Part shown: positions 5,382 through 8,320 of the stretch, in pieces
Position numbering within the stretch: the first letter of the stretch is position 1
Layout: each line of letters begins with the position of its first letter
NCBI RefSeq assembly: GCF_001677475.2
Contig: NZ_CP015229.1
Length of the DNA: 64,000 bases
Origin: Escherichia coli
Lineage (GTDB): Bacteria; Pseudomonadota; Gammaproteobacteria; Enterobacterales; Enterobacteriaceae
Direction: 5' to 3' (one strand)
Translations under genes and position numbers: made by a program
Notes under the pieces: model-generated
Told to the model about the DNA's origin: nothing
Databases searched by the model: none
Seen by the model: only the letters and a program-made list of their open reading frames with translations

Positions 5382-6704
5382 TTAACGTAACTCTGGCCAG
5401 TACGCTTTGTTGGCCTCCAGCAACTCATCCAGAATAGCTTTGGCGACCGAGGCGCTCGGTACCGTTTTCGACAACGTAATCGCCTGCCACAGGTGCTGAT
5501 ATGAACGCTGTTCCCAGGCGTCCACGACCAGTTTTTCCACCGCCACTTGCTGACTCATTAACCCTTTCTGAAACTGCGGGATATCGCCGACCACCAGTGG
5601 TTCTGGTCCGTTGTGCCCAACCAGACACGGGATTTCGACCATCGCTTCATCATCAAAGTTATGGATTGCCCCGTTGTTAGGCACAATTAGCAACATCCGC
5701 TCCTGAGTGTTGAAGGCAATTGCCGCCGCCAGATCGACGATGTATGACGCATGTTCGTCAATTTCCAGCTTGCCCGCCGCTGAATTTCCTGCCGCCGTAA
5801 TGGCGCGGCAAGCATCGAAAACCTGTTTCTCGCGATGTTCCATCACCTCATTCGCGCGGGTATGTTCAGGGTTGGAATGCTGAACGACATAATCCGGGAA
5901 GAGATAATATTTCAGATAGGTGTTTGGTAATGTATCCGGGTCCAGTGCCTGGACATCCCGCGCTTTTGCATAGGTGTCGTTCCAGCTCGCTTCAGTATGT
6001 GTATCTTGCTGCGGTGGAACATAACCGTGCTTAGAGACATATTGCCGCAGCTGGGGCATCAGGTCGTTGCCCTGCAAATCTTCAATTGATGTCCACCAGC
6101 CAAAGTGGTTCAGGCCGTAGTAGCGCACGCGCATCTGTTTGCGATCTTGCAGCCCAACAATTTGCGCCATCCGGCTTTCAATACCGATTGGCATGTCACA
6201 GATGTTGAGGATTTTCGCATTCGGGCGCAGACGACGCGTGGCTTCTGCGACAATGGCTGCCGGGTTGGAGTAGTTGAGCATCCAGGCATTTGGTGAATAT
6301 TTTTCCATATAATCCACCAGTTCCAGGACGCCGCCAATGGAACGCATGCCGTACGCTATTCCGCCGGGTCCGCAAGTTTCCTGACCAACAACGCCGTGGC
6401 GCAGCGGGATTTTTTCATCCAGTTCGCGCATCGGGTATTTGCCGACGCGGATGTGCGCCATGACAAAATCAACGTCGCTGAATGCCACTTCAGGATCGGT
6501 GGTGTAACTAAACGCAATGTCCGGCGCTTTTTCTTTAAGGATGACTTTACAGGCTTCGGCAATCACTTCCTGCCGCGCACCATCGTTATCATAAAATTTC
6601 AGTGCACGAAGCGGGAAACGGTCCTGATTCGCCAGGAGCATCAACACGATGCCTGGCGTAAAGGTGCTTCCACCGCCTGCGACAACCACTGAGAATTTGG
6701 TCAT
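5382..6704 (-). CDS. Family 4 glycoside hydrolase, 6-phospho-alpha-glucosidase (GlvA/GlvG-like), apparently intact 440 aa
   Basis: N-terminal NAD-binding [20 protein letters not shown]; length typical of GH4 enzymes; directly downstream of the PTS EIICB gene. Confidence 0.8.
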
Positions 6705-8320
6705 TATACTGCCTCCGTAATGGCAACATTTTCTGCTGATTGATGAGAATTAATTAAGCTATCGAGCTGTTCACGCAGCTGGGATACATGCAGACCAATG
6801 ATCACCTGAATGGCATCGCCACTACGGAAGACGCCGTGCGCTCCCAGCTTTTTAAAGACTTCGTCATCCAACGTTTGTGACATGTCATGCAGTGCAATAC
6901 GTAAACGCGTCGCGCAATTGTTAATGCTGGAGATATTGCCGACCCCGCCCAGGGCTTGCAGGATACCGGCAGCCTGATCCAGCTCTTTTTTTGGCTCTGC
7001 CGCGGTGGTTTGGCCTCGCGAGGCTTTGTATTCGGCTTTTGAGTAGAGTTTCACTTCCGCATCTTCACGTCCCGGCGTGCACATGTTGAACTGCAGAATC
7101 AGGGTGCGGAAAACCACGAAGTACAGCAGGGTAAAGCACAACCCAATGGCGATTTGGGTCAGCATCATATCCGCGTGGTTGCTGAACATCGGGATCCAGT
7201 TTTGCGGTAAAACCTGGTCAATCAGACCTCCGCCCATGTTGCCCACCACACCAAAGAGATACATCACGGTCGACATTGAGGCCGCCAGCACGGCGTGTAC
7301 CGCAAACAGCAACGGTGAAATGAACAGGAAGGTAAATTCCAGCGGTTCGGTAATTCCCACCAGCATGGCGGTTAAGGTTGCGGGAATCAGCAAGCCCGCC
7401 ACTTTTACCCGATTTTCCGGTGCGGCAGTGAAGTACATCGCTAAAGAAATGCCCACGGCACCAAAGATTTTTGAGTTACCGTGCAGGGCAAAACCGCCTT
7501 CCGGGAACAATGATTTCAGCGGCTCGGCGCTCAGACTGAACTCTTGCAGATGCTGCGCCCAGTACATCTGAATTCCGCCTTCAACAGCTGCCGGACCAAA
7601 GATAAACGGTCCGTAGATGAAGTGGTGTAAACCGGTTGGGATCAGAATACGTTCGAGGAAGGTGTAAACCCACACCCCAAGCGCACCCGCCGAACGCAGG
7701 AACGCTTGCAAAGATTCAATCCCCATTTGTACTTTTGGCCAGCCGAGCAATGTCAGCCAGGCACAGGGGATCATCACCAGGAAGGCGATGATCACCACAT
7801 AAGACGTCCCCTGGAAAATGCCGAGAAAAACCGGCAGTTTTTTATCGAACAGACGGTTATGCAGCGCCGTCACAATGCCGGAAATGATAATTGCGCCGAT
7901 AATGCTGGTATCGAGGGTTTTAATCCCGGCCATCATTGTCAGACCGCTACCTGCCACCGCGTCCTGAGTGAAATCGACGCCGAAGTAGCTTCCCCAGGTC
8001 ATTCCCATCGCGTTGATGAAATAGTTCCAGGTCAGGAAACTCACCATCACCGCCAGACAAGCACGCCCCTGAGCTTGCTTAGCAAGGCCAATGGGTAAAC
8101 CGACAGCAAAAATCAGCGGCATATTACGGAATACCGTCCAACCGCCCTCTTCAATAATGTGTACGATTTGCGCGAATAAACTGTTCGGATCGGTCAGTGA
8201 TTCCCCGACAAACATCGGGTTTTGCAGCAAGATGGCAAGACCCACCACAATCCCGGCGAAGGGAAACAGCAGCACTGGCGTGAACATCGCGCCGCCAAAG
8301 CGTTGAATTTGACTGAGCAT
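6704..8320 (-). CDS. PTS alpha-glucoside-type EIICB component (GlvC-like), fused EIIC and EIIB domains
   Basis: Polytopic EIIC followed by a C-terminal EIIB with CATRLR phospho-Cys motif; start set at [10 protein letters not shown], which has an AAGAGGA Shine-Dalgarno 8 nt upstream, not at the ORF-track Met at 8581. Confidence 0.8.

Follow-up and report, generated by a model that had tools for sequence, protein, structure and literature searches.

We describe here an alpha-glucoside phosphotransferase system (PTS) locus, and the divergent regulator gene yidP beside it, in a 64,000-nucleotide stretch of DNA from Escherichia coli (contig NZ_CP015229.1) that we refer to throughout as the window. 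On the minus strand, a gene for an alpha-glucoside-specific EIICB permease of the aglA/glvC type (6704-8320) is followed by a gene for a GH4 6-phospho-alpha-glucosidase of the aglB/glvA/malH type (5382-6704), and yidP (8616-9332) lies on the plus strand on the other side of the intergenic region. Both structural genes are full length and yidP is interrupted by an amber codon. Very probably, the locus is a full-length Escherichia alpha-glucoside PTS operon of the aglA-aglB type, of which the glvCBG genes of strain K-12 are a decayed form; in the window, yidP has been cut at codon 87 and control of the operon has most likely been lost with it.

The EIICB and GH4 genes

The GH4 gene is an uninterrupted open reading frame with a 440-residue product, and Pfam matches to PF02056 at residues 6-184 (223.6 bits) and PF11975 at residues 195-415 (190.1 bits) account for both domains at full length. 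In the PDB the product matches the AglB structure 6DUX, which we take to be from Klebsiella pneumoniae, with 917 bits and 393 of 439 residues identical (89.5%), and Bacillus subtilis GlvA, a maltose-6'-phosphate glucosidase (1U8X), with 750 bits and 319 of 437 residues identical (73%); other GH4 specificities score no higher than 212 bits for the 6-phospho-beta-glucosidases and 55 bits for the alpha-glucosidases. The NCBIfam scan gave no specific model for this protein, only sub-threshold matches to alpha-galactosidase and AglA models, and its orthologue is named 6-phospho-alpha-glucosidase in RefSeq. An NAD motif, GGGSTFTPG, lies at residues 10-18. The original prediction proposed alignment with GlvA and inspection of the GH4 catalytic residues as a check, and in an alignment free of gaps and shifted by two residues, C169, D170, H200, and Y263 correspond to C171, D172, H202, and Y265 of GlvA, with all four present. 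From the papers on GlvA structure and kinetics, we take C171 and H202 to be the Mn2+ ligands and D172 and Y265 to be the catalytic Asp and Tyr. The gene is thus predicted to encode an NAD+/Mn2+-dependent 6-phospho-alpha-glucosidase that keeps every catalytic residue and would hydrolyze its phosphorylated substrates.

The EIICB protein that starts at the 8320 ATG has 538 residues and matches TIGR02005 (alpha-glucoside-specific IIBC) with 959.2 bits against a cut-off of 607.3, residues 2-523 aligning to positions 1-524 of the 524-position profile. It has the Pfam domains PTS_EIIC (PF02378) at 10-346 and PTS_EIIB (PF00367) at 453-482, a GITEP motif at 322, and the phosphorylatable Cys469 within NNCATRLR, and scans with NCBIfam and Pfam found no EIIA match in it. 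The protein is identical to a RefSeq coding sequence of isolate 68, and an AGAGGA motif precedes its ATG. Its stop codon overlaps the GH4 start codon as TAATG with a GGAGG ahead, an arrangement that couples the two genes translationally. The assignment as an alpha-glucoside EIICB paired with a 6-phospho-alpha-glucosidase, and the full length of both (440 and 538 residues, with the C-terminal CATRLR), thus stand as originally predicted; uptake of alpha-glucosides by the 538-residue permease is inferred from its homologues.

The frame of the EIICB gene is open farther upstream to a Met at 8581, giving a 625-residue reading that had been suspected of starting at the wrong codon, and we reject it, since the extra residues add nothing to the TIGR02005 match. 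The profile begins at the residue immediately after the 8320 ATG, RefSeq annotates the gene in close relatives as a coding sequence of 1617 nt, and all 37 loci examined from other genera have an ATG at the codon aligned to 8320. In those 37 loci the frame upstream of the aligned ATG closes after 0-59 codons, most often after 13, and in the window the extension from 8320 to 8581 would cross conserved regulatory motifs. The comparison thus points firmly to the ATG at 8320, and not that at 8581, as the true start.

We also note that full-length 538-residue orthologues of the permease (for example L001, 4505-6121, and L002, 4396-6012) are named simply 'PTS sugar transporter subunit IIB' in RefSeq. 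The NCBIfam equivalog NF007255 matches residues 378-538 only, and the name apparently arises because this model was built on the 161-residue GlvB fragment of K-12. The product name is misleading in that it undersells a complete EIICB permease.

The yidP amber allele and the regulatory region

The yidP translation is that of K-12 YidP except at codon 87, where TAG (8874-8876) replaces CAG, and the nonsense codon reported from the sequence is therefore present. The GntR winged helix-turn-helix (wHTH) domain (PF00392, residues 3-64) precedes the stop, and the UTRA domain (PF07702) lies wholly after it, where an open reading frame from a GTG at 8898 encodes it in its entirety. In HutC-subfamily GntR regulators both domains are on one polypeptide; in the window they are not, and its yidP reads as a pseudogene of that subfamily.

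The allele is rare. The exact 61-mer around the stop is in none of 4271 complete RefSeq E. coli genomes, the best matches being one mismatch away, and a 40-mer containing the TAG has no match in a collection of species-representative genomes. However, the 86-residue product is indexed in 120 blocks of public assemblies, about 50 contigs labeled E. coli from assemblies of NCBI, ENA, and Logan encode it, and the closest record found, the draft NCBI assembly GCA_018682865.1 (L013), has the same allele and architecture and is 99.994% identical over 16.3 kb. Occurrence in an independent assembly and on these contigs shows that the allele is real, though rare.

Stops at codon 87 are found on several haplotypes and fall into two sequence classes. 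Those with CGC-TAG (the window, L013, and L014) all accompany an intact GH4 gene, and those with CGG-TAG (L012 and L015-L017) all accompany a GH4 gene with the K-12-type deletion, so the stop has had at least two independent origins. In the window the codon context is CGC-TAG-GGA, which contains CTAGG, where alleles with C at 8873 read CCAGG; the ancestral CGC-CAG-GGA would hold a Dcm site whose methylated second C is the base that was mutated. CCAGG is described as a classic amber hotspot of 5-methylcytosine deamination (PMC12606429, describing Coulondre et al. 1978). An ordinary mutational origin, a C-to-T change at a Dcm site, is thus predicted for the window's allele. As the sole cause of the recurrent codon 87 stops the Dcm hotspot is rejected in part, since the CGG-CAG ancestor of the second class is not a Dcm site.

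Other lesions affect yidP elsewhere. In GCA_964046385.1 (L008, 3802-4089) an IS4-family insertion cuts yidP to 95 residues beside an intact operon. In AP027500.1 (L012), which also has the codon 87 stop, 1338 bp of additional DNA at about 6566-7895, with ends that we take to be those of IS10, lies in the yidP-EIICB intergenic region at the equivalent of about window position 8520. The 90% protein cluster of YidP includes many short N-terminal fragments.

The divergent regulatory region between the EIICB gene and yidP (8321-8615) is non-coding despite the open frame through it, as the equivalent regions in 37 other genera are 231-370 bp long with the upstream frame of EIICB closed. Most positions are unconserved in an alignment of 38 such regions, but three elements stand out. 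The first is a CRP-like site at 8431-8449 (ATTCGTGATCGCTTTCATG) with a GTGA-N6-TCA core that occurs in all 38 regions, compared with a mean of 0.6 in shuffled sequences; it is a candidate CRP site by resemblance to the consensus. The second is a 34 bp palindrome at 8466-8499 (AGAGATCTACGTTTTCG abutting CGAAAAAGTAGACATCT), with 17-nt arms that are 82% complementary and no spacer. The motif TCTA-N14-22-TAGA occurs in 26 of the 38 regions, one per species, where shuffled sequences give a mean of 2.4, the CRP-like core lies at a fixed 36 bp offset from the palindrome in most regions, and the palindrome is a candidate YidP operator. The third is AGAG(A/G)TCTA, directly upstream of the yidP start and conserved across genera; here, at 8604-8612, the window has the second copy of AGAGATCTA (direct repeat D2), which overlaps the yidP ribosome-binding region. 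A scan of 5200-8700 for sigma-70 consensus promoters gave no matches, which fits an activator-dependent promoter, and Rfam identified no known RNA in the locus. A TATCCT about 60 bp from the CRP-like site can be picked out by eye as a -10 element, but we give it no weight as evidence. A terminator-like hairpin at 5349-5375 on the minus strand, with a 12 bp stem and a weak T tract, was found by consensus scan just past the GH4 stop codon, although terminator-like matches in the region are no more frequent than in shuffled sequences and the hairpin is weak evidence of termination.

The association of yidP with these genes is widely conserved. Among 77 loci recovered through YidP, using one genome per species, the EIICB-GH4 pair divergently adjoins a yidP orthologue in every related locus whose upstream flank is long enough to show it, in more than ten genera that include Citrobacter, Klebsiella, Raoultella, Kosakonia, Kluyvera, Cedecea, Buttiauxella, and Mangrovibacter, and Proteus retains the linkage even though it lacks yidE. 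Several of the YidP orthologues are named 'GntR family glv operon transcriptional regulator' by JGI. Together, the synteny and the conserved DNA elements make a strong comparative case that YidP would regulate the operon.

Distribution, known relatives, and chromosomal context

We surveyed 5426 complete E. coli genomes, of which about 4270 have the locus and about 1150 lack it. The 508 bp GH4 segment missing from K-12 is found in 1652 (about 30%), and about 2600 further genomes have the locus without this segment; in the sampled genomes that have it, the gene is annotated as 6-phospho-alpha-glucosidase. The exact 61-mer around codon 369 (CAG) of the EIICB gene is in 3225 of 4274 genomes, 10,503 indexed blocks of a public assembly collection contain the exact 440-residue GH4 protein, and the exact 538-residue EIICB protein is on at least 1000 contigs of public assemblies. 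In comparisons with the loci of five other E. coli records, 5-13 nucleotides and 0-2 residues differ in GH4, and 10-23 nucleotides and 0-1 residues in EIICB; nearly all differences in both genes are thus synonymous, the pattern of purifying selection. The intact EIICB-GH4 pair is ordinary, widespread, and already annotated in E. coli, and is not new. The combination of an intact operon with a broken regulator had been described as unusual, and the combination is indeed rare, but the intact pair is itself common and the stop is mutationally ordinary.

The glv locus of K-12 is indeed pseudogenized, as the original prediction had it. The cryptic K-12 glvC-glvB-glvG genes occupy the same locus, between yidL and yidP, with 99.0% DNA identity to the window outside the lesions, and the RefSeq annotation of an MG1655 record marks a frameshift in the GH4 gene and an internal stop in the EIICB gene. 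Alignment resolves these into a 508 bp deletion in the GH4 gene, corresponding to 5604-6111 of the window and with the 8 bp direct repeat GAACCACT at both end points, and, in EIICB, an amber codon (Q369*) together with P238Q. The amber codon of K-12 stands in GAC-TAG-GTT and its counterpart in the window (7214-7216) in GAC-CAG-GTT, again a CCAGG to CTAGG change at a Dcm site. K-12 has broken structural genes with an intact yidP, and the window shows the reverse pattern. We note that both lesions of the K-12 locus (L003, 3074-5504), the GH4 deletion and the EIICB amber, have simple mutational signatures, and that the shared CCAGG to CTAGG change of the K-12 codon 369 amber and the window's yidP amber is of some interest for mutation biology.

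Two characterized systems are closely related. The aglA-aglB genes of K. pneumoniae, of which 6DUX and 6DVV are AglB structures, have the same two-gene order of EIICB then GH4, and the window's EIICB shares about 80% identity with its counterparts in K. michiganensis, K. oxytoca, K. grimontii, and K. spallanzanii. In Klebsiella a yidP-like GntR gene is also divergent from the pair; the window differs in that its host is Escherichia and its regulator is truncated. According to PMC5309279 (which cites Pikis 2006 and Thompson 2001), Klebsiella AglA works with the EIIA-Glc of E. coli and confers growth on sucrose isomers, isomaltose, and methyl-alpha-glucoside. In the literature we found no activity measurement of the Escherichia EIICB and GH4 proteins. 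The glvA-glvR-glvC (malA/malP) genes of B. subtilis are in a different order, and their regulator is the activator GlvR, which is unrelated to the GntR/HutC proteins. B. subtilis GlvC and the window's permease are both EIICB proteins without EIIA, and the two GH4 enzymes share the same catalytic residues. GlvA and GlvC are described as functioning in E. coli via Crr (PMC5309279).

The surroundings of the locus have several features of their own. Between yidH and the GH4 gene is an IS200/IS605-family element (3561-5308), with tnpB at 3604-4812 on the minus strand (scoring 384 bits with the TnpB model) and tnpA at about 4820-5251 on the plus strand. The element replaces about 4.7 kb that in K-12 and many other strains carries yidI, yidJ, yidK, and the greater part of yidL, a gene of which about 75 nt at the 3' end is all that is left. 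E. coli C, ATCC 8739, and A30 share this junction, but at only about 98.3-98.7% identity. At 15195-15386, between a cbrA-like gene and yidX, the window lacks the dgo (galactonate) operon that other E. coli have at this place, and other records have about 4.7 kb more; dgoT- and dgoD-like genes follow cbrA in L012 and L014, and yidX follows directly in the window and L013. A 728-residue open reading frame near tnaA (28307-30493, minus strand) matches E. coli records of a ShET2/EspL2-family type III secretion effector toxin. Rfam places istR at 244-373 on the minus strand (147.7 bits), beside a tisB-like context, and a ROSE_2 thermoregulator at 12133-12205 on the minus strand (100.4 bits), upstream of ibpA, both as expected for this chromosomal region. 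Identity to complete RefSeq E. coli genomes does not exceed 98.0% over the 24.6 kb at 9400-34000 and reaches at most about 99% in the glv/yidP/yidE part, and many alleles of the yidP-yidE haplotype are private to it. The source lineage appears to be poorly represented among complete genomes.

Probable function of the operon and probable loss of YidP control

The homologues suggest what the operon would do. Its permease would import isomaltulose, turanose, maltulose, leucrose, trehalulose, isomaltose, and methyl-alpha-glucoside, as characterized homologues do, and would phosphorylate O-6 of the glucosyl unit with phosphate from phosphoenolpyruvate delivered through EI, HPr, and EIIA-Glc (Crr). 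Reliance on EIIA-Glc is expected of an operon with no EIIA gene of its own, and none of crr, ptsH, and ptsI falls within the window. The substrate range and the EIIA-Glc dependence of the AglA/AglB and GlvC/GlvA homologues in E. coli are given in PMC5309279 (summarizing Pikis 2006 and Thompson 2001). The GH4 enzyme would then release glucose-6-phosphate and the aglycone. Arbutin and maltose, which had been put forward as test sugars, are poorly chosen, and the AglA/AglB substrates are informative instead; arbutin is a beta-glucoside, and maltose is taken up by E. coli via MalEFGK.

The conserved synteny and DNA footprints suggest that transcription of the operon would depend on CRP and that the divergent HutC/GntR regulator YidP would control it through the conserved palindrome. 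A C-to-T change at the Dcm-methylated CCAGG would have cut yidP at codon 87, leaving an 86-residue fragment with the wHTH and without the UTRA effector and dimerization domain, which would be inactive by family precedent. Control by YidP has then most likely been lost, and the operon would be expressed whenever CRP-cAMP allows. The characterized HutC-subfamily GntR regulators beside sugar PTS operons (TreR and NagR of B. subtilis, MngR and FrlR of E. coli) are repressors released by a sugar phosphate, and if YidP is a repressor of the same kind, as appears likely by analogy, loss of repression is the likely consequence.

Several points weigh against this reading. The repressor label for YidP rests on family precedent, the literature we found holding no experiment on YidP and mentioning it only in lists of uncharacterized GntR-family factors. 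Seen from EIICB, the palindrome is farther upstream than the CRP-like site, which is not the classic position for simple promoter occlusion, and as no sigma-70 consensus is matched the promoter positions are guesses. We found no literature report of E. coli with the intact pair growing on palatinose or other alpha-glucosides by means of its own glv genes. The codon 87 stop is also present in lineages with a deleted GH4 gene, a point in favor of neutral loss over selected derepression.

The yidP amber could thus represent selectively neutral decay, in which a dispensable locus has taken its first hit in the regulator with no phenotype gained, and we give this about an even chance of being correct. 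Such decay fits the absence of the locus from many genomes and of the 508 bp segment from many more, the association of CGG-TAG stops with deleted GH4 genes, the existence of other yidP truncations such as the IS4-family insertion and the short N-terminal fragments, and a Dcm hotspot that accounts for the mutation without selection. However, the structural genes of the window's lineage still differ almost only synonymously, and the remainder of yidP is undamaged, which suggests that the event is recent; neutral decay and derepression are also not mutually exclusive.

YidP could alternatively be an activator, or otherwise needed for induction, in which case the intact-looking operon would be silent and cryptic by regulation. 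We consider this unlikely. The lack of a sigma-70 consensus promoter in the intergenic region and a palindrome positioned upstream of the CRP-like site are both compatible with activation, and the B. subtilis glv operon is activated by GlvR, albeit a protein of an unrelated family. Known HutC-subfamily regulators beside sugar PTS operons are nonetheless repressors, and the CRP-like site alone can explain a weak promoter. Still more doubtful is a selective account of the loss, by which an otherwise tightly repressed alpha-glucoside PTS would have become constitutive, and the repeated codon 87 stops and the insertion sequence hits in or near yidP in other lineages would reflect selected derepression where sucrose isomers or isomaltose abound.

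There is little to recommend a bypass of the stop that preserves regulation, whether by an amber suppressor, by readthrough, or by reinitiation at the GTG at 8898 to give separate wHTH and UTRA pieces. A glutamine-inserting suppressor would restore the wild-type residue, as the original codon was CAG, and the reinitiated frame covers the whole UTRA domain, but suppressors are rare in natural isolates, the window shows no sign of one, and in HutC-subfamily GntR regulators the DNA-binding domain needs a covalent link to the dimerizing UTRA domain. That the stop is a sequencing or assembly error in an intact yidP, as its absence from the complete RefSeq genomes might have suggested, is rejected on the evidence of L013 and the other contigs and has next to no probability.

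Loss of YidP control over a full-length operon therefore remains the reading that we favor. The finding is accurate but ordinary, its only unusual feature being the rare, lineage-specific stop in yidP. Its value lies mainly in correct annotation, in that the intact form of the 'cryptic' glv locus of K-12 is widespread in E. coli. The yidP amber also provides a natural regulator-null strain, which could be used to probe both repression by YidP and the use of sucrose isomers.

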